64,000 bases of DNA from a virus. Positions within the stretch are counted from its first letter, which is position 1. Every line of letters starts with the position of its first letter. The DNA is taken from positions 30,880-94,879 of IMG/VR virus record IMGVR_UViG_3300023082_000009. One strand, 5' to 3'. The notes under the pieces were generated by a model. The model saw nothing but the letters and a program-made list of their open reading frames with translations. It was not told the origin of the DNA and did no database searches. The position numbers and the translations under genes were made by a program. Of this stretch, positions 1,238 through 59,275 are shown in pieces.

Positions 1238-1271
1238 CCAACGTGCAATTGATTGCACAGGAGGCAACAAC

Positions 1272-1715
1272 GTGAGCCACACCAGCGCAGTAAAAAGCAT
1301 TGCCATCACCAGCGTTGAAGCGCTGCGTGAGGCCGTCAAGGAACTGAACGCCAACGGCGTGAAGTGCAGCTTGGTCGAGAACTCCACCCCTCGCGCCTAC
1401 TACAGCAACCAGACCGGCCTGGGCAAAGCCGACTTCGTACTCAAGCTGGACAACAGCCGTTACGACGTTGGCTTCTACAAGTCCGAGAACGGCGGCTACG
1501 AAGTGCGCACCGACTTCTGGGGCCAGGACGTGAAGAACCAGCTCGGCGCCACCGCGTCAGGCCCTGGCAAGACTGAGCAAGCCCAGCTGGGCAAACTCTT
1601 CCAGGCGTACGGCATCCACGCCGCCATGATGGAAGCCCGCCGCAAGGGCCTGATGGCTACCCGCCAGAAAGGCAAGGACGGCATCGAGCAAGTAGTCGTC
1701 TCGGGCTACCGTTAA
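1272..1715 (+). CDS. DUF1257 (Ycf35-like) domain protein
   Basis: AGGAGG SD, GTG start; MSHTSAVKSIAI...YDVGF...DFW...L.QAY pattern typical of DUF1257; followed by a DUF2997-like gene. Confidence 0.7.
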   Translation: MSHTSAVKSIAITSVEALREAVKELNANGVKCSLVENSTPRAYYSNQTGLGKADFVLKLDNSRYDVGFYKSENGGYEVRTDFWGQDVKNQLGATASGPGKTEQAQLGKLFQAYGIHAAMMEARRKGLMATRQKGKDGIEQVVVSGYR

Positions 1716-1750
1716 TCCACTCACCCGGCCATAGGCCAGAGGACCGCACC

Positions 1751-1954
1751 ATGCGTAAGCAAGTCGTTATCTCCATCCTCCCGGATGGCACCACCAGCAT
1801 CGACGCCCAGAACTTCAAAGGTAAGGGCTGCCAGGATGCTACCAACCAGATCGCGCTCGCCCTGGGCGGTGCCGGTCGCGACACGTCGGACGACAAGAAG
1901 AAGCCTGACTTCTTCGCGCCCGGCACCACCGGCACCCAGACCCACAACGTCTGA
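1751..1954 (+). CDS. DUF2997 domain protein
   Basis: VVISILPDGTTSIDAQNFKGKGCQDAT...KKPDFF matches the DUF2997 pattern; usual partner of DUF1257. Confidence 0.7.
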   Translation: MRKQVVISILPDGTTSIDAQNFKGKGCQDATNQIALALGGAGRDTSDDKKKPDFFAPGTTGTQTHNV

Positions 1955-1978
1955 TAGCGAGGCACCAGGAGAGAGATC

Positions 1979-2353
1979 ATGGGACTGTTAGCCAATAGCT
2001 TGGACAAGCCGCAGGACGCAGTGGTTATCACCTTCGGGGAGGACGGCTCTGCCGAGTCCCTGCACGTAGACCAGTTCGACCTGGGCTTCCTCGGCAAGAA
2101 GGAAATCACCCGCGCCACGGACATCCGCTTCGAGGGTGACACGCAGGACTGGACGATCTACCTCCTGGACGCCAAGGGCGAAAACCCTACGCTGGCCTGG
2201 AAGGGCTGCAAAGGCCTGCCCTCCTACGAAGTGGCGCGCACCGTCGAGGTGGCTTGGTTGAACCTTTGCCGTCTCAACGATGCCGACCCGCGTGACGGGG
2301 ACGGACACACCTACCTCAACCAAGCACGGAAGGCCAACGGTCTCGCCATCTGA
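1979..2353 (+). CDS. hypothetical protein (DUF1257/DUF2997 cluster)
   Basis: AGGAG SD; phage-like codon use. Confidence 0.7.
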   Translation: MGLLANSLDKPQDAVVITFGEDGSAESLHVDQFDLGFLGKKEITRATDIRFEGDTQDWTIYLLDAKGENPTLAWKGCKGLPSYEVARTVEVAWLNLCRLNDADPRDGDGHTYLNQARKANGLAI

Positions 2354-2366
2354 CCTTCCACCCCTC

Positions 2367-2392
2367 GGGCGCTTCGGCGCCCTTCCTTGTTT
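2367..2392 (+). terminator. possible intrinsic terminator / UUCG hairpin
   Basis: GGGCGC-TTCG-GCGCCC with a weak T-rich tail. Confidence 0.45.
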
Positions 2393-2403
2393 CGGAGAAC
2401 ACC

Positions 2404-2727: not shown

Positions 2728-2737
2728 GGCCTCCGCC

Positions 2738-3276: not shown

Positions 3277-4632
3277 ATGAAGTACAACCACGGGCACCAC
3301 ACTTTGTCGACCCTGGCAAAGACGCTGACCACCAAAGACGACGCTCACTTCATCGCCTACATCGAAGTGATGTCCGTTCTGGGCAAGTTCTGGTCCGCCC
3401 GGTTCACCCCCAGCGAGTTCCTGGTCCTCAGTTTCCTGGCCAATCGCACGCTGATTTTCCGTAAACGGGCGGAGGCAATCACCCGTAGACACTTCGAGGA
3501 GGGCATCTCGTCGGAGAGAGGGGACACCTGCACAGGCTGCGGAGTGAGCGAACACGCCCGAGTCAGGGCTTTAAACTCTTTGTGTTCCCGCAATTTCATC
3601 AACGTACACTGCTTTTTGGAAGGCAAAACAGAGACCAAGCCCCGGATCTACGAGCTGAATTATGAGCTTTTAGTAGAGGGCCACGACCTCGGGGAGATCC
3701 GAAACATGCTAAAACGTAGCCGAACACTCGACCGAGATAAGCGTCCCGAGGACGATTTTTATGCCGAAAATACCCCCCGACAATTCGCGGGGGTACCCCC
3801 CGACAATCGTGGAGGCTTAACAGAGCTATTACATAGCTCTAAAAGAACTTCTATTAACATAGAAGAGTCGGCAGCTGCGCAGCCGAGCCAATCGAGGTTG
3901 AAGGTTGGTAAGAAGACAGTAGCGGGCGCAATCAATTGCACACCCAAACCTCCGCCTACTGGTAATGCCGCAGAGCGCATCGCGCAGATCCAAGCTGACA
4001 CTACGAAAGCTCGGACCACCCGCGTGGCTACTGCAAAGACCCTCCCCGCCCGGCGCTGGGAGATCAAGGATCTACAGGCCCTCCTTGACCAGGGGCGCGC
4101 CGACGCGGGCGTCACCGTGCCTCGCGTTATGGCGACTACCAAAGGGGCGGGTGTGTTGTTCAAGCGGATGAAGGAAGCCGAGATCACCGACGCGCTGGAG
4201 TTCTTCACCTGGACCTTCCAGAACTGGGGCACCGTGGCCTCGGCCAACCGCCGCGCCAAGGCCAAGCAGTTGAAGGACACCAAGGCGTCGAACAGCGAGA
4301 TGTCCCTGATCCCGAACTTCGCGGAGCTGGCCTACCGCTTCCCCTACATCCTCGCGTTCTTCAACGACCGCAAGTACACCAAGGTGCAGGAAGAGCAGAA
4401 GGTTGTCCGGCAGAAGCAGGAGACCCGCGCCCTCGCAGAGAAGCAGCAGGTGGCCATTGCTACCCGCCGCGACATCGTGCGCCAGCAGGACATCGAGCAA
4501 CGCGACAAAGACCGAGCTGCCCAGGAGCGTCGCGTAGCCCGCCCGGTCGTGCGCCGCAGCCGCCAGCTCGTCGACGACCTGGACGAACCGTTGCCAGCCT
4601 ACAAAGAAAGGGAGTGGAACCCAGATGAGTAA
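3277..4632 (+). CDS. putative replication initiator (lambda O-like, N-terminal wHTH)
   Basis: GGAGG SD; N-terminal wHTH-like segment (EFLVLSFLANRT...RVRALNSL...PRIYELN); internal direct repeats and AT-rich tract; lies upstream of DnaC-like and DnaB genes. Confidence 0.6.
   Translation: MKYNHGHHTLSTLAKTLTTKDDAHFIAYIEVMSVLGKFWSARFTPSEFLVLSFLANRTLIFRKRAEAITRRHFEEGISSERGDTCTGCGVSEHARVRALNSLCSRNFINVHCFLEGKTETKPRIYELNYELLVEGHDLGEIRNMLKRSRTLDRDKRPEDDFYAENTPRQFAGVPPDNRGGLTELLHSSKRTSINIEESAAAQPSQSRLKVGKKTVAGAINCTPKPPPTGNAAERIAQIQADTTKARTTRVATAKTLPARRWEIKDLQALLDQGRADAGVTVPRVMATTKGAGVLFKRMKEAEITDALEFFTWTFQNWGTVASANRRAKAKQLKDTKASNSEMSLIPNFAELAYRFPYILAFFNDRKYTKVQEEQKVVRQKQETRALAEKQQVAIATRRDIVRQQDIEQRDKDRAAQERRVARPVVRRSRQLVDDLDEPLPAYKEREWNPDE
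3771..3865. other. putative replication origin inside the initiator gene
   Basis: TACCCCCCGACAAT at 3771-3784 and 3794-3807, then an AT-rich tract with inverted repeats at 3822-3840 and 3848-3865. Confidence 0.5.
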
Positions 4633-9446: not shown

Positions 9447-9902
9447 ATGTCCGAAGAACGCATCATCCGCCGCACACGCACCGTAGCCCGAGGGGTACTC
9501 CGCCAGGAGCCTACTCACCTGGGCGACATCAACCAACGCATGCAATTGATTGCAGAAGCCGAGGCCGAGATCCGCAAGACCCTGGAGGCCATCGAGACAG
9601 CCAAGGCCGAAGTGGAAGACCTCATGAAGGCCGCAAAGCTGACCACCCACGAGCACCTGGGGCTGATCGCGGAGTGGGTCGAGACCAAGACCAACTCGTC
9701 TACCGAAGTCAGCGTAGAAGCGGCTCGCAAGGCGATCAGGAACGACAAGGACTTCTTCTCCGTCCTCAAGGTCCAGATGGGTCCGCTGGGCAAGGTGCTG
9801 TCCGAGAACGAGATCAAGGCCATCGCCAAGGTCACGCCCGGTCAGGTCACCGGCAAGAAGTTCCAGATCATGCAACCGAAAAAGAAGGCAGGCAAAAAAT
9901 GA
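9447..9902 (+). CDS. hypothetical coiled-coil protein
   Basis: AGGAG SD; N-terminus MSEERIIRRTR. Confidence 0.75.
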   Translation: MSEERIIRRTRTVARGVLRQEPTHLGDINQRMQLIAEAEAEIRKTLEAIETAKAEVEDLMKAAKLTTHEHLGLIAEWVETKTNSSTEVSVEAARKAIRNDKDFFSVLKVQMGPLGKVLSENEIKAIAKVTPGQVTGKKFQIMQPKKKAGKK

Positions 9903-13099: not shown

Positions 13100-14788
13100 A
13101 TGCGCCCGGCTATCCTTGCGGGCGCTATGAAGCTCCCTCTCGATAGTATCGACGCCCCTGCCGTAAAGAAGCTGACCACCTACAAGCATCGCCCCCTGGG
13201 CCTTGCCGACGGTGAGCCAGATCTGGAGGTCGAGGCTTGGTACTACGAGGGGGATTTTCTTTGCGTGCCCCGCCAGCTCGGGATCACGCTGTGCAATCAG
13301 TTGCACATCGAGATCGAAGATCAGACCAGTGATGGGTTCCCTGCCGTCTTCCCTTGCATCCCCGATCCCAGGGTGTACCAGGAGCCGCAGATCGACCAGA
13401 TCGTGGAAACCTTCGACAGCTTTTACGACTTCATCTTCCGTGCCCATACCGGGTGGGGTAAGACCGTGGGCTCCCTCATTGCCGCAGCGCGGATGGGGCG
13501 GACCACCATTGTCATCGTTGACCAGGACAACCTCCGGGAGCAGTGGGAGGAGTGCCTGATCAAGTTGTTCGGCTTCAAGCCCGAGGAGATCGGGATCATC
13601 CAGGGGCCGGAGAAGAAGTGGCGCTGGAAGGGACTGGCCGTAACCATCGCTATGGTGCAGACCCTCAGCCAGAAGGGCGTGTCGGAGGAGATGGCGGAAT
13701 ACTACGGTACTGCCATCGTCGACGAGGTACACACCGCTGGCGCCCCGACGTTCTCCGCCTCCCTGGTCATGTTCAGCGCCGGTCGACGCCTGGGCGTGTC
13801 TGCTACTCCTGGTCGCCGTGATGGCCTCCAGCGCGCCCTGGACCACAACCTGGGCAAGATCCGCGTGGCAGCCGACAAGGAGCACGACCGCTCCGCCGTC
13901 TACGTGATCCGTCACGAGACCGTCTACAGCTTCTACGGCAACGTGTCCAAGATGACCGGGCGGATCTTCTCCGAGGTCGAGGAGGATGGCCCGCGTAACA
14001 TGACGATCATGGAGGCAGCTCTCTGGCTGTACGAGTCGGGGCGGGACGTGCTGATCCTCTCGGACCGTATCGAGCAGCTGCGGGAGCTGATGAGCATCGG
14101 CTATTACCTGGGGGTGCCCGAGGAGGAGATGGGCCTGTATACTGGCCACGACCCCCAGTGGATCTTCGGCAAAGACCCGAAGCCTACCAAGAGACCTGAT
14201 GACCTGCACCGATGGAAAGACGACCGAGGCCGCTTCGTGTACGCGGAGTACAGCGCGGTCGGTTTGCAGCTCGTGAGGAAACGAATTCCTAAAGCCACAC
14301 TCAAACAGGTCAAAGAAAGATGCACGATGATGTTTGCTACATACGGGATGTGCTCAAAGGGCTTCGACAAACCCAGCCTCACGGGCGGCATCGACGCTAC
14401 ACCTAGAAGCACGGCAGAACAGATTCACGGTCGGATTCTCCGAGGGGAAGACGGCAGGCCAATACCGATCTGGGTAACCATCGCCGACGTGAACAGCTAC
14501 CGACTGATGTATTCGTTCGGTAGTCGGGTGAAGGAGTATCTCAAAAGCAATGGTGTCCTCTTTGAGTGGCACCCAGACGGGAGTGTTGAACCATGCGACG
14601 TGACAGACCTAAAGGCAGAGATCTACGACCGGGTAACCGAGCTGAAATCTATGCAGATCCAAACCAACAGCGACGGGCTAAATATTCTGCTGACGGCCAA
14701 GGACGCGCAGAGAAACAAGCGGACAGCCGAGCGCGCTATAATGCAAAAGTTCCAAAGACCGCCAGCCCGCCTGCCCCGCCATCAGTGA
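13100..14788 (+). CDS. superfamily 2 DNA helicase (ResIII/UvsW-like)
   Basis: AHTGWGKT, IVDEVH, GVSATP, GFDKP, EQIHGRILR. Confidence 0.9.
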   Translation: MRPAILAGAMKLPLDSIDAPAVKKLTTYKHRPLGLADGEPDLEVEAWYYEGDFLCVPRQLGITLCNQLHIEIEDQTSDGFPAVFPCIPDPRVYQEPQIDQIVETFDSFYDFIFRAHTGWGKTVGSLIAAARMGRTTIVIVDQDNLREQWEECLIKLFGFKPEEIGIIQGPEKKWRWKGLAVTIAMVQTLSQKGVSEEMAEYYGTAIVDEVHTAGAPTFSASLVMFSAGRRLGVSATPGRRDGLQRALDHNLGKIRVAADKEHDRSAVYVIRHETVYSFYGNVSKMTGRIFSEVEEDGPRNMTIMEAALWLYESGRDVLILSDRIEQLRELMSIGYYLGVPEEEMGLYTGHDPQWIFGKDPKPTKRPDDLHRWKDDRGRFVYAEYSAVGLQLVRKRIPKATLKQVKERCTMMFATYGMCSKGFDKPSLTGGIDATPRSTAEQIHGRILRGEDGRPIPIWVTIADVNSYRLMYSFGSRVKEYLKSNGVLFEWHPDGSVEPCDVTDLKAEIYDRVTELKSMQIQTNSDGLNILLTAKDAQRNKRTAERAIMQKFQRPPARLPRHQ

Positions 14789-15118: not shown

Positions 15119-15508
15119 ATGGCAGACCAACCAAGAGTCATTCGCCCGAAGGCTGCTCAAACGCGGCAGGCGGCGAGTCAAGAGATCGCGGGGCGTGCGA
15201 CAGTCCAGACGGACTACCGCAGGAAGAAGACCACCGAGCAGGAAACGGCAAGGCAGGAATCACTCGATGCGGGGTACTTTCCCCCAGGAGTGGAGCCTGC
15301 CCTTGTCCGTGTAGGGGTGGGCAACACCATCAACCTGGGTAACTTTGAGTCCATGCGCATCGACATCAGCATCACGCTGCCGTGTCTCGTCGAGGACATC
15401 GAAGACACCTACCGTCGCGCCAGCGAATACGCGTCGGAGTTCATGGCCGAAGAAGAAGCCGTATGGCTCGGGCCAACCAACGCCAATCCAGCAAAACCTA
15501 AGCGCTAA
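15119..15508 (+). CDS. conserved phage protein (TINLGNFES motif)
   Basis: GAGG SD; NTINLGNFESMRIDI motif common in phage replication modules. Confidence 0.7.
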   Translation: MADQPRVIRPKAAQTRQAASQEIAGRATVQTDYRRKKTTEQETARQESLDAGYFPPGVEPALVRVGVGNTINLGNFESMRIDISITLPCLVEDIEDTYRRASEYASEFMAEEEAVWLGPTNANPAKPKR

Positions 15509-18560: not shown

Positions 18561-18599
18561 GTTTCAATGCAATTGATTGCACCAAAGGTCTGTGAAGAC

Positions 18600-18628
18600 T
18601 TGAATAAAGAATGAACCCGCCCTACTAT
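18600..18628 (+). promoter_or_regulatory. sigma70-like promoter
   Basis: TTGAAT-17 bp-TACTAT; a 16-bp palindrome copy lies just upstream at 18567-18582. Confidence 0.55.
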
Positions 18629-18690: not shown

Positions 18691-20184
18691 ATGGCAAACA
18701 CCAAAGCTAAATCCGCTCCGGTTGAGGAAGCGGCTGCCGACATCGAAGTCGGTTCCAATGTCACCTTCCTCGGCTACGATGCCGACACCCCCGAAGCCGA
18801 ACGCATCCTCGAAGCTGGCGAGCGTTACGAAGTAATCGAACTGCCCGGCACCACCGAGATCGACGGCGAAGTTGTCGAAACCGGTTACGTTCTGCGCCTG
18901 CCGAACCCTGACTTCAACAAGAAGAAAAAGGTTCACGCCGAAACCAACCCTGAATTCCTGGAAACCGAAGTCTTCGCCGAAGAGATCGAACTCTACGTTG
19001 AAGGCGACGATGCGGGTGCCGAAGGTGGCGAAGCTGCCGACGCGGGCGCTGATGCCCCAGGCGATGATGACCCTCTGACCTACGAAGAGCTGGCCGGTTA
19101 CGACAAAGCCCAGCTGCTCGAATTCGCAGAAGTCAACGAAGTCAAGCTGACCGCAGCTGACAAGAAAACCGACAAGGCGCTCCTGGCCAAGCTGGCTGCC
19201 GTCTACGAGCTGAGCCCTGCCGAGCCTGCCCCTACCAAGGCACCGGCCAAACCAGCAGCCAAAACTGCCGCAGCCAAGCCTGCCGCCGAAGCGCCTGCTG
19301 CCAAGCCTGAAACCGCCGCAGCCAAGAAAAAGCGTGAAGCTGCCGAAGCCGCGCAGAAGACCGCAGCCGCTGCCAAGAACAAAGGCGTGAACAAGTCGCC
19401 CGAAGGCGAAGTCGATCCTGACGAAGTGCCGGACCTGGACAACGAAGACGATGCCGTTCTGGCGTTGATCGACGGTGACGTGGATCTGGTCGAAGTAGCC
19501 CAGGAACTGGAATCGGCGGTGGCCGTGTCCGAGTACCAACTCGGCGGCGTGCTGTACCACATCAAAAAAGAAAAAGTGCATCTGGCCGTCGACAAGAAGG
19601 GCAAGCTGCTCAACCCTGAATACGGCGAAACGGGCGGCTTCAAGCTGTTCCTCCAGGAGAACTTCAACCTGGACTACCGCAAGGCCACCTACCTGATCGA
19701 CATCTACATCAACTTCACCCAGGCCGGTATCGAAAACCCGTCCGAAGTTGTTGGCCGTATCGGCTGGACCAAGGCAAGCAAGATCGCCAAGCCGCTGGGC
19801 CTGCCTGACGCTGACGTAGAAGGCCTGATCCAGGCTGCCGAGAACAACACCGTTCAAGACCTGTCTACCATCATCAAAGATGAATTCACGGTCGGCGGCG
19901 GTGAGGGCGCCAGCAAAGGCTCCGAAGGTACCAAGGTCAATCGCCTGACCCTGCGCTTCCGCTTCGTTGAAGAAGAAGCCAACGTGGTCGAGGACATCCT
20001 CAAGGAAGCCGCTGAGAAACTCGGCGTCAAAGAAGATGAAGCCTTGTTCCAGATCCTGACCGAGTATCACGCACAAGCCCTGACCGGCGACGCTGATGCC
20101 CAGGACGTGGAAGACACTGCCAAGGCAGCGGCCAACGCCAAGCCAGCTACACGCGGTAAGCCTCGTGGCGCAGCTCGTGCCTAA
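18691..20184 (+). CDS. acidic multidomain putative DNA-binding protein (HeH/Rho-N-like, AKP-rich linker, DUF3102/HTH-like, RHH-like C-terminus)
   Basis: Strongly biased codons; own promoter and terminator; LGGVLYHIK...FKLFLQENFNLDYRKATYLIDIY...IGWTKA. Confidence 0.6.
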   Translation: MANTKAKSAPVEEAAADIEVGSNVTFLGYDADTPEAERILEAGERYEVIELPGTTEIDGEVVETGYVLRLPNPDFNKKKKVHAETNPEFLETEVFAEEIELYVEGDDAGAEGGEAADAGADAPGDDDPLTYEELAGYDKAQLLEFAEVNEVKLTAADKKTDKALLAKLAAVYELSPAEPAPTKAPAKPAAKTAAAKPAAEAPAAKPETAAAKKKREAAEAAQKTAAAAKNKGVNKSPEGEVDPDEVPDLDNEDDAVLALIDGDVDLVEVAQELESAVAVSEYQLGGVLYHIKKEKVHLAVDKKGKLLNPEYGETGGFKLFLQENFNLDYRKATYLIDIYINFTQAGIENPSEVVGRIGWTKASKIAKPLGLPDADVEGLIQAAENNTVQDLSTIIKDEFTVGGGEGASKGSEGTKVNRLTLRFRFVEEEANVVEDILKEAAEKLGVKEDEALFQILTEYHAQALTGDADAQDVEDTAKAAANAKPATRGKPRGAARA

Positions 20185-20202: not shown

Positions 20203-20232
20203 AAAAGGCACCCACTACCGGGTGCCTTTTTT
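20203..20232 (+). terminator. intrinsic terminator
   Basis: AAAAGGCACCC-ACTACC-GGGTGCCTTTTTT. Confidence 0.85.
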
Positions 20233-20252
20233 ACTTGACCAGGAGATCTGCT

Positions 20253-21014
20253 ATGCCAACTCCAATTCGCCCAGGTCGTAAGTCGGTGAACGTGACCCGA
20301 CCAGAGAAGGGCAGTACCCCGGCACGCCCGTCGCGCCCTGCGCCACGGCCAAAGCCAACCGACATGTCCAAGGTCAAACTGCGCCTTGAGTACGTGGACA
20401 TCAATGACATCCAGCCCTACGAATGGAACGCACGCGACAACGCCAAGGCTGTGACTGCCGTGGCCAACTCGATCAGAGCGTTCGGCTTTGTCGTGCCCGT
20501 AGTGATCGACGCCAACGGCGTGCTGGGCGCTGGCCACACTCGTGTCGAAGCAGCCAAGACCCTGGGAATGCTGGAGGTTCCTGCGGTGCGGGCGGAGCAC
20601 TTGACCAAGGAACAGATGGACGCCTTCCGTATCGCCGATAACAAGGTGGCGGAGATGGCAACCTGGAATACCTCGATGCTGGCGGATGAGATGGACAAGC
20701 TGACCGGCCTGTTCGACTTCACCGACTTCGGTTTCGGCCAGGGCGAGATCGACTGCCTTGCGTCCCTGGTAGGCGACGACTGCCTGTCTACTGCCAACCT
20801 GGGCGCCCTCACCGGTACCGCAGCAGGCGAAGAGACTCCAGGCCGCAGCGTTCGCCGTGCGCCGCTCCAGGCCCGCATCGTGATCGGTGAGCTGACCTTC
20901 TTTGTCCCCGCCGAGCAGTACCGTAACTGGGTGCAGGGTCTGCGCGATCTGCACGACTTCAAAGACGAAGACATTGCGGCTGATCTGAAACGCCGCCTGG
21001 GGTTCCACGAATGA
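20253..21014 (+). CDS. ParB/Srx N-terminal domain protein
   Basis: IQPYEWNAR...SIRAFGFVVPVVID...AGHTR..AA...RIADNK. Confidence 0.9.
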   Translation: MPTPIRPGRKSVNVTRPEKGSTPARPSRPAPRPKPTDMSKVKLRLEYVDINDIQPYEWNARDNAKAVTAVANSIRAFGFVVPVVIDANGVLGAGHTRVEAAKTLGMLEVPAVRAEHLTKEQMDAFRIADNKVAEMATWNTSMLADEMDKLTGLFDFTDFGFGQGEIDCLASLVGDDCLSTANLGALTGTAAGEETPGRSVRRAPLQARIVIGELTFFVPAEQYRNWVQGLRDLHDFKDEDIAADLKRRLGFHE

Positions 21015-23341: not shown

Positions 23342-23371
23342 TCGAATGCAATCAATTGCACGGAGTACACC

Positions 23372-24082
23372 ATGAACAGTCCCGCACACTTCCCGGCCAA
23401 CCCTTCCCGCTTCGTCTTCGACGCGTCGGTGGCAGCCATCTTCGATGACATGGCCGACCGCTCGATCCCACTCTTCCGGGAGGCGCACCGCAACAACGTC
23501 AAGCTGGCGGAGCCCTGGCTGGCGAGCGATCCCCAGGTGCTGGACGTGGGCGCGTCCCGTGGTGCGTTCCTGCTGGAGCTGGATCGCCTATACGGCATCG
23601 ACAACTTTGACGTGCGCGCCACCGACATCAGCCCGGAGATGGTGGCCTACATGCGGGAGGACTTCCCCTCGGTGCAGGTCGACCAGCTGGACATCACCAC
23701 CAGCGCGTTCCTCAACTGCTCCCACACGTACGACGTGATCAACTTCACCTACGTACTCCAGTTCATCCCGAAGGAGCTGCAACGCATTGTGCTGGCCAAG
23801 GTGTGCGCCATGGTCAAGCCGGGCGGTGTGCTCTTTATCGGCCAGAAGAACAAGGACGACAGCCCCGCAGGCCAGATGCTCCACAAGCAGTACATCAAAT
23901 GGCGCATGGACAATGGCTACACCCAGGAAGAGATCGACGCCAAGACGAAGGCACTTGCTGGTAGCATGTGGCCCACTGATGAGGCTATGCTCATCGGAGA
24001 TCTCAAAGGCGCCGGGATGGTCGAGGTGGTACGCACCTGCTCCTGGGGTCCATTCAGCAACCTGATGTGCATCAAGCGATAA
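23372..24082 (+). CDS. cmoA: CmoA-like (carboxy-SAM synthase family) SAM-dependent enzyme
   Basis: F.FD..VA..FDDM..RSIP, LDVGASRG, D.SP.M, Y.LQF, PGG.L....K, NGY...EI..K..L all follow the CmoA layout. Confidence 0.75.
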   Translation: MNSPAHFPANPSRFVFDASVAAIFDDMADRSIPLFREAHRNNVKLAEPWLASDPQVLDVGASRGAFLLELDRLYGIDNFDVRATDISPEMVAYMREDFPSVQVDQLDITTSAFLNCSHTYDVINFTYVLQFIPKELQRIVLAKVCAMVKPGGVLFIGQKNKDDSPAGQMLHKQYIKWRMDNGYTQEEIDAKTKALAGSMWPTDEAMLIGDLKGAGMVEVVRTCSWGPFSNLMCIKR

Positions 24083-29598: not shown

Positions 29599-29631
29599 CC
29601 TGACGTGCAATCAACTGCACCGGAGAAACCT

Positions 29632-31678: not shown

Positions 31679-31703
31679 GGCCCGCTTCGGCGGGTCATTT
31701 TTT
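31679..31703 (+). terminator. intrinsic terminator
   Basis: GGCCCGC-TTCG-GCGGGTC-ATTTTTT. Confidence 0.75.
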
Positions 31704-31732
31704 AAGTGCAACTAATTGCACGGGAGGTAGGT

Positions 31733-35515: not shown

Positions 35516-36007
35516 ATGATCCTCGCAGCCACCGGCCACCGGCCTGACAAACTGGGCGGCTACAGTGTACCCCTCGCCACTCTCCGTACTGACCTAGCAA
35601 TGGGTTGGATGGACATCAGGCAAATCGACAAAGGTATCACCGGCATGGCCCTGGGCTGGGACCAGGACTTCGCTCTCGCGTGCTACGAACTCGGAATCCC
35701 CTACATCGCAGCCATACCCTTCGAGGGCCAGGAGAAAGCGTGGCCTGCTGCATCGCAGCGCGTATATCGCTGGCTGATGAACCGTGCCGATGAGGTCGTC
35801 ATCGTCTCGCCCGGCGTGTACTCCCCGGCCAAGATGCTCAAGCGAAACATCTGGATGGTCGACGAGTGCAATCAATTGCTCGCGCTGTACGACGGCAGCC
35901 AGGGCGGGACGGCCCACTGCCTGCGGTATGCCCGCGAATGGCAGAAGGAAGTGACCAACCTATGGCACGTCTATCAAGCCGAGCTGCAAGATGACATTCC
36001 GTTTTGA
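35516..36007 (+). CDS. SLOG family (YspA/DUF1273-like) protein
   Basis: AATGHRPDKLGGY, ITGMALGWDQ, AIPF.GQE..W, RN.WMVD, GGTAHC. Confidence 0.85.
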   Translation: MILAATGHRPDKLGGYSVPLATLRTDLAMGWMDIRQIDKGITGMALGWDQDFALACYELGIPYIAAIPFEGQEKAWPAASQRVYRWLMNRADEVVIVSPGVYSPAKMLKRNIWMVDECNQLLALYDGSQGGTAHCLRYAREWQKEVTNLWHVYQAELQDDIPF

Positions 36008-36093: not shown

Positions 36094-36347
36094 TTCCCCA
36101 ACTAGTGGATCACTGGTGAACCAGTGTCCGGCCCGTGTCGTCGGTGGTCTCTGGTGTCGGGCCGGTGGCGCGTCTCTGGTCAGTGGACCGCTGGTCGGTG
36201 GCCGTCAGTGTTGGCGCGGTCTGTGCTAGCCGCCTCGGTGGCGTCCTGGCCTCTGTCCGGCCCGCCCTGGCCCTGTGTTGCGTGCAATTGATTGCACCAG
36301 GGTGCAGGGTTCGCACACCACACACGCACTCTACAGAGGCACACACC

Positions 36348-36665
36348 ATGCAAACCAATACCCGCCGCCGCGCTCCCCTGGATAACGTCGCCCAGGCCAC
36401 CGCGCCCGCTACCCGTACCGTCTGCCACCTCAACGGCGCCGCCCTGGGCGTTCGCGTACATTCCAACGGCTGGGCGGCCACCTATGACGGCAAAGACTGC
36501 GCCCTGGCTGACATCCCTAGCCAATACCACGGCATGATTAAAGCCACCGTCAAAGGCTTGGCCTACGACCTGGGGTACTTCACCTACGCCCCGCCTAGCG
36601 TGCCGTGCGCCGGTTGGGACCGGGTAGAGTGGATAGACCACGTAACCTTTAACTTTCCCATCTGA
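36348..36665 (+). CDS. hypothetical early protein
   Basis: CTCTACAGAG box / GAGG SD. Confidence 0.65.
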   Translation: MQTNTRRRAPLDNVAQATAPATRTVCHLNGAALGVRVHSNGWAATYDGKDCALADIPSQYHGMIKATVKGLAYDLGYFTYAPPSVPCAGWDRVEWIDHVTFNFPI

Positions 36666-39143: not shown

Positions 39144-39237
39144 TCATTAATGTATGAAAGGCCGTTTTTGCTGCAAAACCTTGCAAGAAATTGGCCTTTT
39201 GCAAAGCGGTGCAATCAATTGCACGGGAGTGGTAACC

Positions 39238-39495
39238 ATGGAACGTACAGAGAATGGCCGCGCTATCCTCAAGACTGAGACCGGGCGCAAAGTGGTAGCC
39301 CTGGATATTGTCGCGAAACTGTCAGGTACTGGCGCGAGTCGCGTTATTGCAATCTTCAAAGCACTAGCCCAGGTTGCGGAACATTCCGGCCTCACAGTTG
39401 AGGAACTTGTCCGCCTGGAGAACATGCCGACCGCCGCGCCGGACGAAGAACGCGCCCAGGGCACGAACGACTATTACGACGAACTGCACCAGTGA
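39238..39495 (+). CDS. hypothetical protein
   Basis: GGGAG SD directly after a 16-bp palindrome copy. Confidence 0.6.
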   Translation: MERTENGRAILKTETGRKVVALDIVAKLSGTGASRVIAIFKALAQVAEHSGLTVEELVRLENMPTAAPDEERAQGTNDYYDELHQ

Positions 39496-41123: not shown

Positions 41124-41813
41124 ATGGCACTTTCAAAAGAACAGTATTTCAACATGGGCCACCGCGACGCCCAGACCACCCCGCCTAACCGTAACGGCGC
41201 CCTCATTGCTTCCATGTCCTGGCAGGGCCGCGCCTACGCCGAAGGCTACAGCGCTGGGGAACTTCACCAGGAAGCAAACGCCATTCGCGCCCAGGCTTGC
41301 CCGGCATGCGCGGCGGGTATCCCCTTTCAACAGTCTGTCGATTGCGTGCAATCAATTGCACCGGGTGCAGCACGCCGGGCGGACCGCATCCAGGCACTGA
41401 CACGCGGCTACATCTCCGCCATGCTCTGGACCACTACCGACGACGACGGCAACGAATGCCAGGACATGGAAGTAACGCCAGAGGGCCGCGCCGAAGTCCT
41501 GGCAATCGTGACCGCGTTCTATGACGCCAACCATGTCGACCTGGGCGCGTACGTTGATTTGCGAATGGCGGACGTGGGCAGCACCTACCGAGTTCACGCC
41601 AGCCAGCAAACAGAGGCGTACGGGTTTGCAGGCCACGACCTTTGGCTGACTAGCCAGGGCCACGGGGTTGGGTTTTGGGACCGTGGGCACGGGCGGGTAG
41701 GCGAACGCCTCACAAAGGCCGCCAAGGCGTTTCAGGGTTGCGACGCGTATACAACAGACGACGGCTATGTCGACTTGTCTATCCCCTATCACGCTTCCTG
41801 GAAAAAGGTCTAA
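41124..41813 (+). CDS. hypothetical protein (GHD.WLT..GHG.GFWDR motif)
   Basis: CCCTAAAGGG box; motif recurrent in phage early proteins. Confidence 0.7.
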   Translation: MALSKEQYFNMGHRDAQTTPPNRNGALIASMSWQGRAYAEGYSAGELHQEANAIRAQACPACAAGIPFQQSVDCVQSIAPGAARRADRIQALTRGYISAMLWTTTDDDGNECQDMEVTPEGRAEVLAIVTAFYDANHVDLGAYVDLRMADVGSTYRVHASQQTEAYGFAGHDLWLTSQGHGVGFWDRGHGRVGERLTKAAKAFQGCDAYTTDDGYVDLSIPYHASWKKV

Positions 41814-41817: not shown

Positions 41818-42141
41818 ATGAGCATCAACAACACAATCCAAGTAACCGCAATCGAACGCGCCATTGAAGACCTGGAGCGTTTGACCCATGACGCAATCGC
41901 CAGCCTTCGCGGGAACGAGAAACTCAACAAAAAGGTAATTGAGCGGGCGGTTCTGGTAGGCAACGCCCAGGCAGCCGGGGAACTGGTATACGCGGCGCTG
42001 ATCGCTTGCAAGACGCCTGTACGCCCTGACTCGGTTGAGCTGGTAGTCGACACCAAGGGCTTTAACCACGACCGCGTAACCGAGAAGGCCAGCGCCGCCG
42101 CTACGCGTACCTTTGTGCGCCGCATCAAAGACAACTATTAA
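41818..42141 (+). CDS. hypothetical protein
   Basis: AAGG SD. Confidence 0.6.
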   Translation: MSINNTIQVTAIERAIEDLERLTHDAIASLRGNEKLNKKVIERAVLVGNAQAAGELVYAALIACKTPVRPDSVELVVDTKGFNHDRVTEKASAAATRTFVRRIKDNY

Positions 42142-42177
42142 TCGCGGTGCAATCAATTGCACCAGGGAGCAGCAGAC

Positions 42178-43180: not shown

Positions 43181-43609
43181 ATGAAAACCGTAGCCACCTA
43201 CCCAGCCTTCGACGTAGTAGACCTGGAAACCGAAGTTATCCATTTGTCCGCCGAGGTCTGCAATGATCGCCTGGGCTCAGGTATCAAGTTCTGCACCGCG
43301 TACGAAAGCCGCCGTCACGGTACCCTCTACCGCGAAGTGTCGCCCAACTGCATCGACTACTATTGCGCTGACATCTACACCACCCCGGAAGAGATGGCCG
43401 CCCAGATTGCCAAGTCAGCAGAACGCAAAGACCCTCGGTTCTGGTTTAACAATTGCGGCGCCTGCATCACCGCCCAGGCAATGCCGCATTACACGATGTT
43501 TCTCATCCAGGAAGGGCAGTTGGTCACTATGGCCGGTCACACACTGCGCGTACGTATCGTGGGCGACTATATCCGCCTGGACGTGGTAGAGCAGGCAGCC
43601 GCCGCGTAA
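43181..43609 (+). CDS. hypothetical early protein
   Basis: CTCTAAAGAG box / GAGGT SD. Confidence 0.75.
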   Translation: MKTVATYPAFDVVDLETEVIHLSAEVCNDRLGSGIKFCTAYESRRHGTLYREVSPNCIDYYCADIYTTPEEMAAQIAKSAERKDPRFWFNNCGACITAQAMPHYTMFLIQEGQLVTMAGHTLRVRIVGDYIRLDVVEQAAAA

Positions 43610-43629
43610 TGCAATCAATTGCACCGCCT

Positions 43630-43658
43630 AGGGCGCCCAGGTTGGCGCCCTTTCTTTT
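43630..43658 (+). terminator. intrinsic terminator
   Basis: AGGGCGCC-CAGGTT-GGCGCCCT-TTCTTTT. Confidence 0.75.
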
Positions 43659-44332: not shown

Positions 44333-44614
44333 ATGAACGCACTTCACACCACCACCATTCTCGCCCAGGCTCAGGCCGTACCATTTACCCAGGCCGAAGC
44401 CTATGCAGCCGAACGCGGTATCATGGGCCGCTACAACCGTCAGTATCTGCGCAGCCTGTTGCGTGCCCGTCGCGTGATGCGCCGCAACCTGACCCAGGCA
44501 ATCGCGGGCGGTCACCTACTCCAGGCAGTAGAGCAAGCCACCCTTATGCATAGCTTCGGAGTACAGGCCGTTGTATGCATCCGCCGCAATGCACGTCACA
44601 CCCTGGTAGCCTGA
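44333..44614 (+). CDS. hypothetical protein
   Basis: CCCTAAAGGG box. Confidence 0.65.
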   Translation: MNALHTTTILAQAQAVPFTQAEAYAAERGIMGRYNRQYLRSLLRARRVMRRNLTQAIAGGHLLQAVEQATLMHSFGVQAVVCIRRNARHTLVA

Positions 44615-45094
44615 TGCAATTGATTGCACGAGATTGGTTCGCTCTTTTCTCAGTGAAGAATCGGGCGGACCAATCCATTACCCCTCTATGCATATGCCAT
44701 ACCACCCTATAGAAAAATCCACCATAGCTTTTCCGGTGTCGCTAAATGGACCCGCGCCGCAGAGTTTCTCTACGTACTGATTTCAAAGTGACCCTACCTA
44801 CTTTCTTCGTTTTCCATCTGGCCTACGACACGTCATGTTCAATCAAGCTCTTTGCATGTCTCTCTCATGACTCTCACATATCAAAACGCTTTTCAGATCG
44901 GATTTTTTGCTGATGCAATCAATTGCACTGACATGTATGGGAAATTTTTGAATTCAATCAGTGTCCAGGTTTGCGAGGGCAGGATCGGTCATGATCACAT
45001 CAGTGTTCAGCATGCCTTCGTCATGAACAGGTATGATCGGCACAACGGGGCAAACCATTCAATGCCCGAAAAATCGACGTTGAGGATCAAGATC

Positions 45095-47578: not shown

Positions 47579-47755
47579 ATGACCCAACAAGAAGCCTTCA
47601 CCTGGATCAGCATCGGCGTGGCTGCGGTTGCCTTGCTTATGTCCGTTTGGCTGGTCCTGTTTGTGCGTCGCCTGATCGTCGAGCGCAAGCAATTGACTGC
47701 ACGGCACCGCATGTGCGATTGCAACCAGGGCCGGGAGCCGTGCCGCTGCAAGTAG
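47579..47755 (+). CDS. small membrane protein ending in CDCNQGREPCRCK
   Basis: AGGAG SD; TM segment; Cys motif. Confidence 0.55.
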   Translation: MTQQEAFTWISIGVAAVALLMSVWLVLFVRRLIVERKQLTARHRMCDCNQGREPCRCK

Positions 47756-51585: not shown

Positions 51586-51639
51586 TGCTAGGATCTGCCT
51601 AAACCAACACGGTGCAATTGATTGCACGGGAGATCTGAT

Positions 51640-51915
51640 ATGAAGGACACAGCGCAAACCGCCCTGCTCGTAGGCCTGCGGGCCATCTGGACGGGCGACC
51701 CGGCCAACATGCCAGAAGGGGTGGCCATAGTGGACACCTCCCTCGGCCCTCGCATCGTGTTCAGCCACGCGGCAGACGACCGCCAGCTGGCCCAGGAGCT
51801 GCGCGAGAAGTTCTCGGCGCTCCGCCAGACCAACAAGATGCTGCGCCACGTCGAAAACTACGGCACCGGCAAGCTGCCCACCGGCATCACTCGTATCAAG
51901 AAGGACGACAAGTGA
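51640..51915 (+). CDS. hypothetical protein
   Basis: GGGAG SD after a palindrome copy. Confidence 0.6.
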   Translation: MKDTAQTALLVGLRAIWTGDPANMPEGVAIVDTSLGPRIVFSHAADDRQLAQELREKFSALRQTNKMLRHVENYGTGKLPTGITRIKKDDK

Positions 51916-56229: not shown

Positions 56230-56555
56230 CCACCTACTCCGACGGCGAACATGCCAAGCAAGTCCTCCAGGAGATAAGGAGGCTGCGCCCGGCGCTGTAC
56301 AACCGGATCAAGATCTGCAAAGGCACTCGCGCTGGCTTCACCAAGCAGCAGCGGGTGCTCCAGGTCACGCTCACCGACGGTCAGTATTACCAAGTCTGCT
56401 TCGCCCGCAAGGGTACCCACTTCGGCCAAGTCGTAGGGGAGTTGGTGGACTACCTGATGAAGTGGAAGGTGCGCGATGATCATGGACACCCTGTTTGCCC
56501 TGACGAAATTGGGGTACTTGTTTGCGATGTGGCAGATCTTAGCCATAAGCACTAA
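56226..56555 (+). CDS. hypothetical protein
   Basis: ATGA overlap. Confidence 0.55.
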   Translation: MTTYSDGEHAKQVLQEIRRLRPALYNRIKICKGTRAGFTKQQRVLQVTLTDGQYYQVCFARKGTHFGQVVGELVDYLMKWKVRDDHGHPVCPDEIGVLVCDVADLSHKH

Positions 56556-56723
56556 TGCCCTCGCGGCGGGCCACCGGACCCTACCCCTGGCCTCCCTCTC
56601 GATCCTCATAGGTCTCTCCCACTTCTCGGTGTGATGCAATCAATTGCACCGAGGTCAGTGTCGTACAAATCTTCTTCCCTTCTCGATATACTCCTGCCTA
56701 ACCGCAGACAGGAGTACCTCGCC

Positions 56724-57221
56724 ATGCCAGTTCCAGCAGGCTTTACCCAGATCCGTTCCGGCTTCATTGAGGTCGGGGACTTCATCTACCAACCCACCCT
56801 TGCCGTCTACCTGGAGGTCTACGCGGACTCGTCCTACGTAGGCTCGCCGGTCCGCAACCATAAGCAGGTTTGGCGGAACCCTGCCAAGGCTCACGCGCAG
56901 CTCATGGCCTCCACCGTGATCAAGTCACACACCGACCTCTGCGACGAGTTGCAGGAGTTCGACTCGGTACGTCTGCGCGAGAAGAACGGGTGGGGCGACA
57001 ACTACCGCATGGTCGTGTACAAAGACGACCAATTCATCTACCTGCGCAGACTGCGCAACGAAGGCGCTGACACCAGCAGCCGCACCTCCGACCGCGTGTG
57101 CCGCCGCACCGGCAAGGTCTGGTCCTGGACGGCGGGCGGATGGGAGCCCTACGAGGCCACCCTGGAAGAGAGCCCTATGGTCAGCAAGAACCTGGACATC
57201 GCCGCAGGCCTCGGAGCGTAA
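56724..57221 (+). CDS. hypothetical protein
   Basis: AGGAG SD. Confidence 0.65.
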   Translation: MPVPAGFTQIRSGFIEVGDFIYQPTLAVYLEVYADSSYVGSPVRNHKQVWRNPAKAHAQLMASTVIKSHTDLCDELQEFDSVRLREKNGWGDNYRMVVYKDDQFIYLRRLRNEGADTSSRTSDRVCRRTGKVWSWTAGGWEPYEATLEESPMVSKNLDIAAGLGA

Positions 57222-57222
57222 T

Positions 57223-57987
57223 ATGACCCGCGACCAAGAGTACCGCCTCTACCGCTATAAGCTGGCTATGGACCTGCTCGACGGCGAGTTGGAGAACCCC
57301 AACGGCTTCGTGGAAGTCAGCGTCGAGGAGAGCCCAGGCATATACACCGCCGAGGAAGTCTTCAAGCCGGAGTACCGGGACGCTCGGGTGCGGTTCGCCA
57401 TAGACACGTTGAAGGATCTAGGCCTGACCCCGCGCCGCGCCCGCGACATCTACGGCATGCAGGATGCTCGTCTGTTGCGGGAAATTGGCGGAGTAGACGC
57501 CAGGATTGTAGCGGGGTCTCCTCGCAGCGGTAGGCGTGGCCGTCCGCACCCTGGACGCCCCGCCCGCAGCGCTGATCAGGTTGCCGCAGACATGCGTGCG
57601 CTGGTAGAGATGGACGACCCGGCCCCGGTGGCCCGCAGCACCCCTAGCCAGTCCCTGCGGAGCCTGCTAGAGGCCGTGTGCAGCACACCCATGGCGCCAT
57701 CCGTGCCAGAAGTGCCGGAGTGGGGCGACACCGTGCTGCCCGCCACCCGGCGCCTGTTAGAGGGCGCACCCGAGCCAACCTATAACCCGGACGGCGACAT
57801 CGCGGACGACCTGCCCACCATGGCGGTAGACCGGTTCGGGGTGGAGTACGAAGTGCCACGCAAGGGCAAGAAGAGCAAGGACGGCAAATACTCGCTTACC
57901 GGCAAGAAGAAAGCACCACCTCCGCCCAAGCCGCAGCGCCGCTTGGTCGTGAAACGCAACAGGCCGCCAGTGGCGCCGGACGATTAA
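57223..57987 (+). CDS. hypothetical protein
   Basis: GGAG SD; basic C-terminus QRRLVVKRNRP. Confidence 0.65.
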   Translation: MTRDQEYRLYRYKLAMDLLDGELENPNGFVEVSVEESPGIYTAEEVFKPEYRDARVRFAIDTLKDLGLTPRRARDIYGMQDARLLREIGGVDARIVAGSPRSGRRGRPHPGRPARSADQVAADMRALVEMDDPAPVARSTPSQSLRSLLEAVCSTPMAPSVPEVPEWGDTVLPATRRLLEGAPEPTYNPDGDIADDLPTMAVDRFGVEYEVPRKGKKSKDGKYSLTGKKKAPPPPKPQRRLVVKRNRPPVAPDD

Positions 57988-58034
57988 CCCGACCTCGGGT
58001 AGACTGCAACCATCAACAACCAGGAGTACCACCA

Positions 58035-58403
58035 ATGCCTACATTCCATAACACCACCGACGTGCTTGCGTACCAGGAGGGCGACGTTCGCTTCCTCCCG
58101 ATTGCCCTGCCGTATGGCTTCAACCATTGGTCCGAGGCTGCACGTCAACTCCGCGAGGACAACCCTGACTTCTTCGCCGAGCGCGAGATCTGCTCTAAGA
58201 ACGACACCATCGGCGTGATCGCGTGCCAGGACGCCAACGGCAACGAAGTCGTGCGCGGCTTCATGGCCATGTGCACCGGCTCCCGCTACGTCTGCACCGA
58301 CTGGAAGCAGCGCCAGGGCACCCCGACCACCGTGCCGCAGGCCGACATCCTGGGCATCGCGGTGCGCAAAGGCCTCGTGACCCTGTTGAAGGTGAAGGTA
58401 TGA
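58035..58403 (+). CDS. hypothetical protein
   Basis: AGGAG SD. Confidence 0.7.
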   Translation: MPTFHNTTDVLAYQEGDVRFLPIALPYGFNHWSEAARQLREDNPDFFAEREICSKNDTIGVIACQDANGNEVVRGFMAMCTGSRYVCTDWKQRQGTPTTVPQADILGIAVRKGLVTLLKVKV

Positions 58404-58936
58404 ATAAGCCAGCAGCAGTAGTCGCCACGCTGGGTGAGGTAATCGGCTTGGCCACCGATTACTACTTGGCCTTCGACTTGGCCAACAATACCCACGCAGG
58501 CATCACGATCAAGCAAGAAACGCCGATCCAGTTCAATGTTTTCGTAACGCACGCGGACCACCAACACCAGCTTTTGGCCGTAGCGGTGAGGGACGGCTTG
58601 GGCGAGTGGGGAGTCACGTTCATGGATCTGACCAACCCGCAATGGCTGGTCATCCAGGAGCGTAACCAGGGCTTCGGTGTAGCTCGGTACAGCTACCAGA
58701 CCGCCGAGCAACTTTTCCGCGAATACGCCAAAGCGCACCACGCGGACGAGACGGTGACTTTCGTGAAGTCCTCCCCAGGCCGCACCGTCGTGCGCCGGGC
58801 GGTAGTGGTCGACGACCGCACCCTGAGCGCGGTGCCCTTCGGCGTGATCCTGGACGCACGCGTGATTCGTGGCGAGCGCATCTTTGCCCAGGACACCGAG
58901 CAAAACCCACGCTACGGCATCGACATCTACGGGTGA
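58400..58936 (+). CDS. hypothetical protein
   Basis: ATGA overlap. Confidence 0.65.
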   Translation: MNKPAAVVATLGEVIGLATDYYLAFDLANNTHAGITIKQETPIQFNVFVTHADHQHQLLAVAVRDGLGEWGVTFMDLTNPQWLVIQERNQGFGVARYSYQTAEQLFREYAKAHHADETVTFVKSSPGRTVVRRAVVVDDRTLSAVPFGVILDARVIRGERIFAQDTEQNPRYGIDIYG

Positions 58937-58939
58937 CCC

Positions 58940-59275
58940 ATGAACAAGCTCTCTCTCCTCGCAGCCCTGGTAAAAGACGCCTGGGCGAAGCGCAAGCAAC
59001 GCAAGAAGGTAGGCAAGCTGGGGCTCTGGGTGGCCGGGGAGATCCTGGACTCGGGCGATGAGTACGTGGCCTACATCACGGTCAACGGCAAGGCCAACGC
59101 CGTCCTGGTGCGCAGCGCCTCGAAGGCCACGGCCATCTCCCGCCGCAAGCTGATCATCGACACCATGATGTCGGCATCGCGGGAGGAGGCCCAGGAGCAG
59201 ATCCTCCGCAACCCCGTGCAATTGATTGCACGAACCCAGGGCGACGTTACCATCGTCAACCCCAAGGACCACTGA
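58940..59275 (+). CDS. hypothetical protein
   Basis: Coupled ORF; contains a palindrome copy. Confidence 0.6.
   Translation: MNKLSLLAALVKDAWAKRKQRKKVGKLGLWVAGEILDSGDEYVAYITVNGKANAVLVRSASKATAISRRKLIIDTMMSASREEAQEQILRNPVQLIARTQGDVTIVNPKDH

Follow-up and report, generated by a model that had tools for sequence, protein, structure and literature searches.

In Cluster O mycobacteriophages, a 17-bp dyad repeat (5'-TGTTCGGNNNCCGAACA) is present in 34 copies in Corndog, and such repeats lie between as well as inside genes, mostly off promoters and with no orientation to transcription (PMC4351075). The authors of that study predicted a dimeric DNA-binding protein with a role other than transcription initiation and did not propose a binder (PMC4351075). 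The stoperators of Cluster A (L5 gp71) are asymmetric, are oriented with transcription and serve lysogenic silencing (PMC4351075). Dispersed dyad repeats in lytic phages have hence already been described, but without a binder or a function. Here we analysed a 64,000-nucleotide stretch (the window, 60.6% GC) formed by bases 30880-94879 of the 94,879-bp virus record IMGVR_UViG_3300023082_000009 (G000), which carries many copies of a 16-bp palindrome with the arms TGCAAT and ATTGCA around a central pyrimidine-purine (YR) dinucleotide. The network formed by these palindromes is real, is selected at the DNA level and is conserved across a large phage group including cultured Pseudomonas phages. The palindromes are predicted to be double-stranded DNA sites for a symmetric dimer of a phage protein, most likely the 497-amino-acid (aa) product of the gene at 18691-20184, an assignment that we consider probable but well short of certain. 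New in our study are a specific candidate protein and a site rule consisting of conserved arms, a YR centre and even spacing, and a literature search found no paper mentioning the motif or its variant in Pseudomonas phage SM1.

Perfect 14-mers of the form TGCAAT-YR-ATTGCA were found 22 times in G000, 14 of them in the window, and not once in the reversed sequence used as a control, an enrichment of 22 perfect copies against 0 expected. Exact matches to RTGCAATNNATTGCAY numbered 13 in the window and 0 in dinucleotide shuffles, and the 14-mer TGCAATNNATTGCA matched exactly 14 times. Five copies deviate by one mismatch (3926, 13291, 29605, 31706 and 35866), while the copy at 47687 has two mismatches and is a doubtful member, given that dinucleotide shuffles contain on average 1.4 matches by chance if up to two mismatches to the 14-mer are tolerated. 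Apart from this doubtful copy, the list of about 20 positions in an earlier note on this DNA was borne out, the motif being present at 20/20. The same note described an asymmetric and nearly invariant 2-bp core. The dominance of a CA or TG centre stands, but the sense-strand orientation in G000 is even (CA:TG = 11:11) and the centre is TA at 31706. A C on the right flank is kept in 20/22 copies and is stricter than the left flank, which is G or A and often the final base of a stop codon; nearly all genes of G000 lie on the plus strand. With about 25 sites, the intersite distance in G000 has a mean of about 3.7 kb and reaches a maximum of about 8.4 kb, and thus exceeds in places the 2-6 kb proposed before.

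Judged by gene order and protein similarity, G000 belongs next to Pseudomonas phage SM1, a 93-kb Samunavirus that has been cultured on P. aeruginosa; the mean identity is about 47% across 51 proteins. Both phages encode capsid, tail, a lysis module, AAA+ ATPase, DnaB, PolA, primase and RecA as well as nucleases, ParB-like genes, a methyltransferase and terminase. Further phages of approximately 100 kb with many palindrome copies came to light when viral contigs were scanned for exact matches. G003 is syntenic with G000 (~59% protein identity) and carries 32 sites of the same type, whereas G001, G002, G004 and G005 are distant, with 25-40% identity in a few core proteins, 49-61% GC and 19-26 sites each. 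SM1 carries 30 copies of a sister motif, TGCAA-RCGY-TTGCA, at orthologous places. Over these seven genomes, 176 sites with perfect TGCAA/TTGCA arms were counted, compared with about 0.05-0.1 expected per genome. The distant phage G001 (101 kb, 49.5% GC) also has a single open reading frame (ORF) of about 17.5 kb (sense coordinates 66216-83753).

The central dinucleotide is pyrimidine-purine in 173 of the 176 sites (CA 80, TG 42, CG 38, TA 13), although the preferred centre differs from phage to phage: G000, G003 and G001 use T-CA/TG-A, SM1 uses R-CG-Y, G002 shows a mixture of CG and CA/TG, and in G005 the centre is mostly TA, CA or TG with free neighbouring bases. The arms, on the other hand, are invariant across very distant phages and show no compensatory change. 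Between G000 and G003 the centre flips from CA to TG or vice versa at four orthologous sites (1243, 9540, 18567 and 56634), and TA and CG, the single-step intermediates of such a flip, both satisfy the YR rule. Since the set CA, TG, CG and TA is closed under reverse complementation, it fits a symmetric double-stranded site that bends or kinks at its centre and not a strand-specific RNA element. The constraint acts on double-stranded DNA, and the YR centre together with the flipping of orthologous sites is the symmetric behaviour to be expected if, as suggested earlier, a dimeric protein is bound.

Copies inside genes provide a second line of evidence. The peptides AINCT, MQLIA, CNQLH, CNQLL, VQLIA and VQSIA, previously read from such copies, were confirmed and represent three reading frames. 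When all genes were shuffled among synonymous codons, a mean of 0.85 and a maximum of two intragenic copies remained, compared with eight observed, which means that codon choice is bent to keep the motif. At least 15 sites of G000 are matched by a G003 site at the orthologous position and at least nine by an SM1-type site in SM1, and intragenic copies are among those with sites at orthologous places in both relatives. Taken together, the three frames, the codon-preserving shuffle and the orthologous intragenic sites uphold the proposal that the constraint is on DNA and not on protein. In a scaffold-like gene, for example, the peptide at the site is AINC in G000 but AIAC in SM1, the amino acids having changed along with the motif version. 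In the tape-measure gene, a decayed SM1-type copy (TGCAAGCGATTGCC, G000:C1:11499-11512, outside the window) lies exactly at the position of a perfect SM1 site, and a new copy of the G000 type is found 546 nucleotides (nt) downstream of it; judged from the sequences, this pair is a case of site turnover.

In one instance the palindrome itself provides a start codon. At G000:C1:6921-6935, outside the window, it reads ATG CAA TCA ATT GCA (MQSIA) and opens the gene after the major tail gene; a start-codon palindrome is also present at 69165 in G003 and at 3839 in SM1 (MQTLA, SM1 gp007), in all three phages directly past a terminator.

The sites are also spaced more evenly than expected. Compared with a null model that preserves how many sites are intergenic and how many are intragenic, the gaps have a coefficient of variation of 0.55-0.65 instead of about 1.0 (P <0.01 in six of seven genomes, combined z -4.4), and the largest gap per genome (6-11 kb) is about half the null median. 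G000, G003 and SM1 share sites by descent, and these values therefore represent about four independent lineages. Even spacing implies that long genes such as the tape-measure, tail and helicase genes must carry copies.

With regard to gene borders, 17 of the 25 G000 sites with perfect arms lie at least partly outside genes, although non-coding DNA makes up only about 9% of the genome (p ~5e-11), and the intergenic bias is present in all seven genomes. Many copies occupy the space between a stop codon and the Shine-Dalgarno (SD) sequence that follows, 11-16 nt before the start codon. The earlier observation that copies abut SD sequences is hence correct, but the intergenic gaps are barely longer than the site, so that this pattern is expected of any intergenic 16-mer in these genomes. 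The position before start codons would also suit an RNA-level element, namely a small mRNA hairpin ahead of the ribosome-binding site that affects stability, processing or translation. However, the 6-bp stems give weak hairpins (-3 to -6 kcal/mol), the two loop orientations are found equally often and flip between orthologues, and the invariant arms lack covariation, properties that also set the palindrome apart from elements of the repetitive extragenic palindrome type. Given, in addition, the symmetry of the centre rule under reverse complementation, the conserved copies inside genes and the frequent intragenic position of copies in bacterial chromosomes, we regard an RNA element as extremely unlikely.

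A different explanation of the intergenic bias is that the copies are ordinary operators, each serving a single transcription unit whose promoter is controlled by a phage repressor or activator. Some sites do fit this explanation. Outside the window, a strong TTGTAC-18-TATAGT promoter ahead of the AAA+ ATPase gene is followed 13 nt downstream by a site, which is kept in G003 and SM1; within the window, the site at 18567 is just upstream of the promoter of the candidate binder gene, a promoter which itself is under the scan threshold; and sites flank some terminators. In contrast, the number of sigma-70-like promoters in the window does not exceed chance, and the promoter scan found none beside any site, in accordance with the view in the earlier note that ordinary operators fit less well. 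Moreover, a third of the sites are intragenic and positionally conserved, the spacing is even, and about half of 20 sampled sites in Reyranella genomes, described below, are inside genes. We therefore consider ordinary operators unlikely, but this explanation overlaps with that of a dimeric genome-wide binder if the protein acts like KorB. A promoter of a phage RNA polymerase was also considered and dropped, as the site is symmetric and present inside genes.

Which protein binds the palindromes? Among the protein families common to at least six of the seven motif phages, all but two are capsid, portal or protease proteins or enzymes of replication and recombination. The two exceptions are the 497-aa protein (P0001), encoded by six of the seven motif-bearing phages, and a 129-aa protein (15119-15508) without known function. 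The gene for P0001 constitutes its own unit, in which a palindrome, a promoter, the gene and a hairpin with a T run follow one another. P0001 has no Pfam family and belongs to a PHROG family without known function. AlphaFold models built with 40 homologues had a predicted local distance difference test score that averaged 78 over the full length and 88.5 over the C-terminal half. From N to C terminus, the model comprises an SH3/KOW-like N-domain, acidic and Ala-Lys-Pro-rich linkers, a helical domain, a terminal beta-alpha-alpha unit and a basic tail. In an exhaustive VIA-align structure search, the helical domain (~276-403) best matched the DNA-binding domain of ParB-parS (6s6h; Z 7.1, root-mean-square deviation 2.8, 97 residues), followed by Spo0J (1vz0, Z 5.8), KorB (8qa8, 5.6; 1r71, 5.2), SopB-DNA (3mkw, 4.7) and VirB (3vwb, 4.4). 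The terminal unit (~416-470) resembles ribbon-helix-helix (RHH) proteins, i.e. antitoxins, ArtA, NikR, AmrZ and Arc, with Z 4-5 over the whole small domain. On the basis of these models, an obligate RHH dimer bearing two ParB-like helix-turn-helix (HTH) domains would fit a 16-bp palindrome.

Searches for other components delimited this assignment. Pfam revealed no ParB_N domain in P0001, but this domain is present in the products of the next two genes. For ParA-type ATPases, PF13614 and PF01656 gave no match in the whole G000 genome, while controls matched in 14/14 genomes. Pfam and PHROGs assigned no DNA-binding family to about 20 candidate small proteins, and a search of a protein atlas returned only unnamed viral clusters, with ParB-HTH/DUF1016 and DUF3102 as weak leads. 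The earlier idea of a network resembling parS or matS is partly supported, namely with respect to dimer symmetry, DNA-level constraint and even spread, but not in the sense of a canonical ParABS system, as no ParA was found and the candidate binder has no CTPase domain. The product of 18691-20184 had been named first among several candidate binders; it has a predicted ParB-like fold and is the one among them that co-occurs and co-varies with the motif.

This co-occurrence was also seen when loci were chosen by the protein alone. In 59 such viral loci (855 kb in total), 99 perfect-arm sites were found compared with about 0.8 expected and two in the reversed control, and a YR step is central in 98 of these 99. 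Loci lacking TGCAA sites contain sister palindromes of the same architecture, namely TGAAAT-YR-ATTTCA in 11 loci, TGCAGG/TGCAGA (TGCAGG..CCTGCA) in two and TGACAT..ATGTCA in one, so that the motif or a sister palindrome is enriched approximately 100-fold. The variant specific to each phage is located 40-140 nt upstream of its family gene in 22 of 52 loci, compared with about 5% by chance. Such a placement is typical of a DNA-binding protein that recognizes its own promoter, and it varies together with the genome-wide motif. In the putative recognition helix, the invariant GWTKA is replaced by GWAKA in the main TGAAA clade (8/11 loci), and in this one clade only. The phage G005 (103.5 kb, with terminal repeats) encodes two binder paralogues (G005:C1:73482-74717 and 75826-76368) and has the loosest motif centre.

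The motif is not restricted to phages. A scan of bacterial genomes with the 16-mer gave mostly chance matches; the exact 16-mer is present, for instance, in the EF-Tu gene of several low-GC alphaproteobacteria (Candidatus Enterousia and relatives) by coding coincidence, and single genome matches are therefore uninformative. Several metagenome-assembled genomes (MAGs) of Reyranella and one other proteobacterial MAG stood out. Five bacterial genomes (four Reyranella and the other MAG) contain 9-31 copies of TGCAATYRATTGCA with none in the reversed control, and all five encode one homologue of the P0001 C-domain (E 7e-10 to 3e-22). The homologue gene is flanked by five sites within 3.2 kb in one of these genomes (G008), and in another genome (G009) a site is located in the promoter region of the homologue's operon. 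When 150 genomes of the same class were sampled, the G009 protein found itself and one weak match (E 2.5e-4), and a looser motif occurred in 0-7 copies per genome compared with 41 in G009; a profile search of the 150 genomes missed a known positive and was discarded. A region of G008 (C7:101930-160546) has 12 palindrome copies within 60 kb, without protein similarity to the motif phages and without a copy of the binder gene, which is on contig C30. The Mur box of alphaproteobacteria was dropped as a candidate for the motif, being a 19-bp palindrome of different geometry.

The bacterial copies raise the possibility that a host protein, be it a LacI/GalR-type repressor, a nucleoid protein or a host homologue of P0001, binds the sites and that the phage exploits or titrates it. 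Operators of the LacI/GalR family (PurR, and the CcpA cre with the pattern TGnAAnCGnTTnCA) share the 14-16-bp layout and the pyrimidine-purine step in the middle, a kink at this YR step being typical of the family; we treat this likeness as a lead only. The arms are, furthermore, identical in very distant phages, and some bacterial chromosomes carry 9-41 copies plus a P0001-like gene. However, the co-varying protein is encoded by the phages themselves, the centre and arm variant of each phage is also found upstream of its own family gene, and the LacI-type HTH (PF00356) gave no match in the four phages searched (G000-G003), where controls matched. In addition, 25 evenly spaced and often intragenic copies are unlike a metabolic regulon. 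A host protein as the binder is therefore distinctly improbable in our view.

The gene following the binder gene encodes a ParB_N-only protein, whose family keeps an invariant GHTRxEA motif, which we take to resemble the nucleotide-binding box of ParB. In at least 18 cases, ParB_N homologues were found on contigs of the same sizes as those with P0001 homologues, contigs of 4-6 kb among them, which indicates that the gene pair is conserved. A scan of the genes around the Reyranella homologues, in contrast, revealed no ParB_N gene, and the one in G002 is far from the P0001-like gene. A "split ParB", with the DNA-binding and ParB_N parts on separate proteins, is thus a plausible arrangement in the Samunavirus-like clade but does not hold for the family as a whole. 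The presence of two ParB_N proteins beside the binder gene, one of them fused to a methyltransferase, also bears on the possibility that the sites are recognized directly, and not via the HTH protein, by an enzyme that modifies, nicks or cuts DNA (for example the ParB_N-methyltransferase or a nickase). Even spacing would suit marks or nicks, and a strand-specific event would suit the sites of G001, which are almost all in one orientation relative to transcription (sense-strand centre CA in 23 and TG in one of 26). Nevertheless, ParB_N genes track the motif less well than the P0001 family does, including the Reyranella genomes and G002 just mentioned, and direct recognition by such an enzyme appears highly unlikely.

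We propose that each ParB/KorB-type HTH domain of a P0001 dimer would read one GTGCAA arm, the RHH domain would dimerize the protein, and the central YR step would supply the deformability for a complex whose arms are one helical turn apart. About 25 sites would be kept quasi-regularly, with a preference for short intergenic gaps, and would be written into long genes where no gap exists. The site just upstream of the binder promoter would be suggestive of autoregulation. The set of sites may nucleate the protein all along the phage DNA in the manner of a parS or KorB-operator set, and the bound protein may organize or mark the replicating genome, possibly with the CTPase-like ParB_N neighbour and the ParB_N-methyltransferase; global transcription control similar to that by KorB would be an alternative downstream role.

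Several results weigh against this proposal. Foldseek, Pfam and a PDB sequence search gave no match for the P0001 fold, and the Z of 7.1 is modest and under the safe level of the tool, so that the fold assignment is a good lead and not a proof. In the alignment of the DNA-binding domain, no column cleanly separates TGCAA from TGAAA phages. No P0001 homologue was found in the 66%-complete contig of G001 in spite of its 26 sites, and the near-single orientation of these sites is not predicted by a symmetric arrangement. G005 shows no even spacing. Finally, the co-occurrence reflects few independent events, since a large part of it comes from a single phage lineage and Reyranella accounts for four of the five bacterial genomes. 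Beyond the identity of the binder, we tentatively raise a broader scenario, which is possible but carries clearly less conviction. P0001 may represent a new DNA-binding family (ParB-like HTH plus RHH, no Pfam model) with TGxAx-n-YR-n-xTxCA sites, i.e. a split ParB common to a large group of lytic phages of about 100 kb and some alphaproteobacterial chromosomes. In phages it might dock evenly and recruit a separate CTPase-like ParB_N subunit, and perhaps a methyltransferase, to organize, mark or globally control the genome in lytic growth.

The coordinates of the sites and of the binder region are compiled in Table 1. Beside the site at 39209, a degenerate second palindrome (TGCAAAACCTTGCA, 39172-39185) with a non-YR centre is located 38 nt upstream, and its equivalent in G003 is TGCGAAAGCTTGCA. 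Near the end of the tabulated region, the 239-aa product of 59291-60010 has an N-terminal match to the RNA-polymerase-binding domain of SutA (PF20661, E 1.2e-6, just under the cut-off), which makes it, by sequence, a possible phage modulator of host RNA polymerase.

Table 1. Palindrome sites and features of the candidate binder region (window coordinates)
Feature	Position	Strand	Context and remarks
Site, perfect (GTGCAATTGATTGCAC)	1243-1258		Intergenic, 6 nt past stop of 272-1237, 14 nt before GTG at 1272; G003 orthologue with flipped centre
Site, one mismatch (CGCAAT...)	3926-3941		Inside gene 3277-4632, reads AINCT; sites at orthologous place in G003 and SM1
Site, perfect 14-mer	9540-9555		Inside gene 9447-9902, reads MQLIA; G003 orthologue with flipped centre
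Site, one mismatch (TCAG centre)	13291-13306		Inside ORF 13100-14788 (helicase-like), reads CNQLH; orthologous G003 site
Site, perfect	18567-18582		17 nt upstream of -35 of candidate binder promoter; kept here in G003 and SM1
Sigma-70-like promoter of binder gene, TTGAAT-17-TACTAT	18600-18628	+	Read from sequence directly; under scan-tool threshold
Candidate binder, 497 aa (P0001)	18691-20184	+	Fold model; co-occurrence and co-variation with motif
Terminator-like hairpin and T run	20205-20233	+	Closes binder single-gene unit; read from sequence directly
ParB_N-only protein, 253 aa, invariant GHTRxEA	20253-21014	+	Conserved neighbour of binder gene
ParB_N and S-adenosylmethionine (SAM)-methyltransferase protein, 518 aa	21516-23072	+	Possible downstream partner (inferred only)
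Site, perfect	23346-23361		Intergenic, 11 nt before ATG at 23372; sites precede orthologous gene in G003 (10419) and SM1 (47938)
Site, one mismatch	29605-29620		Intergenic, 12 nt before ATG at 29632; G003 orthologue 16472 perfect
Site, perfect 5-nt arms, CTAA centre	31706-31721		10 nt past terminator 31679-31696, 12 nt before ATG at 31733
Site, one mismatch	35866-35881		Inside gene 35516-36007, reads CNQLL
Site, perfect	36282-36297		Within or near start of ORF 36198-36665, reads VQLIA
Site, perfect	39209-39224		Intergenic, 14 nt before ATG at 39238; kept in G003 and SM1
Site, perfect	41346-41361		Inside gene 41124-41813, reads VQSIA
Site, perfect	42147-42162		Intergenic, 6 nt past stop of 41818-42141
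Site, perfect	43609-43624		Abuts stop codon of 43181-43609; terminator 43630-43651 next
Site, perfect	44614-44629		Abuts stop codon of 44333-44614
Site, perfect	44913-44928		Intergenic
Degenerate copy, two mismatches, doubtful	47687-47702		
Site, perfect	51612-51627		Intergenic, 13 nt before ATG at 51640
Site, perfect	56634-56649		Abuts TGA of 56476-56634; G003 orthologue with flipped centre
Site, perfect	59216-59231		3' part of ORF 58940-59275, reads VQLIA; G003 site 54936 in homologous ORF, similar flanks

The relationship to SM1 is of practical relevance, as this phage is a cultured and tractable member of the group in which gp050 and the TGCAARCGYTTGCA sites are directly testable, and SM1 and other Samunavirus phages are under consideration for therapy. 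Our results also point to an unannotated, predicted family of bacterial DNA-binding proteins with tens of sites in the chromosomes of Reyranella. If true, the split-ParB scenario would widen ParB-like systems to the management of lytic phage genomes.

In comparison with the known systems, stoperators likewise comprise tens of short sites for one phage protein genome-wide, often in short intergenic gaps. The sites described here, however, are symmetric, their CA and TG centres are balanced and flip between orthologues, and the cultured relatives are described as lytic; such symmetric and orientation-neutral sites do not fit stoperators. The Cluster O repeats share with our sites the tens of copies with invariant arms and a variable centre across the genome of a non-temperate phage that encodes a protein with a ParB-like domain. 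They differ in geometry (7-3-7 there, 7-2-7 here), in sequence and in host phylum, and in our case a candidate family co-occurs and co-varies with the sites, which are also found in bacterial chromosomes. Cluster O is the nearest described phenomenon, the likeness being one of kind and not a sequence relationship. KorB with its 12 OB operators on plasmid RK2 and ParB-parS likewise use palindromes of 13-16 bp that are distributed across a replicon, in part at promoters and in part remote from them; the modelled fold of P0001 resembles their DNA-binding domains, and a ParB_N protein with an intact GxxRxxA-like motif is encoded next door. By contrast, P0001 is an HTH protein without a ParB_N/CTPase domain of its own and with predicted RHH dimerization, no ParA was found, the replicon is a lytic phage, and no match to ParB families exists at the sequence level. 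By analogy, KorB with its dispersed operators and ParB-parS would be the nearest mechanistic models for the palindrome network of G000.

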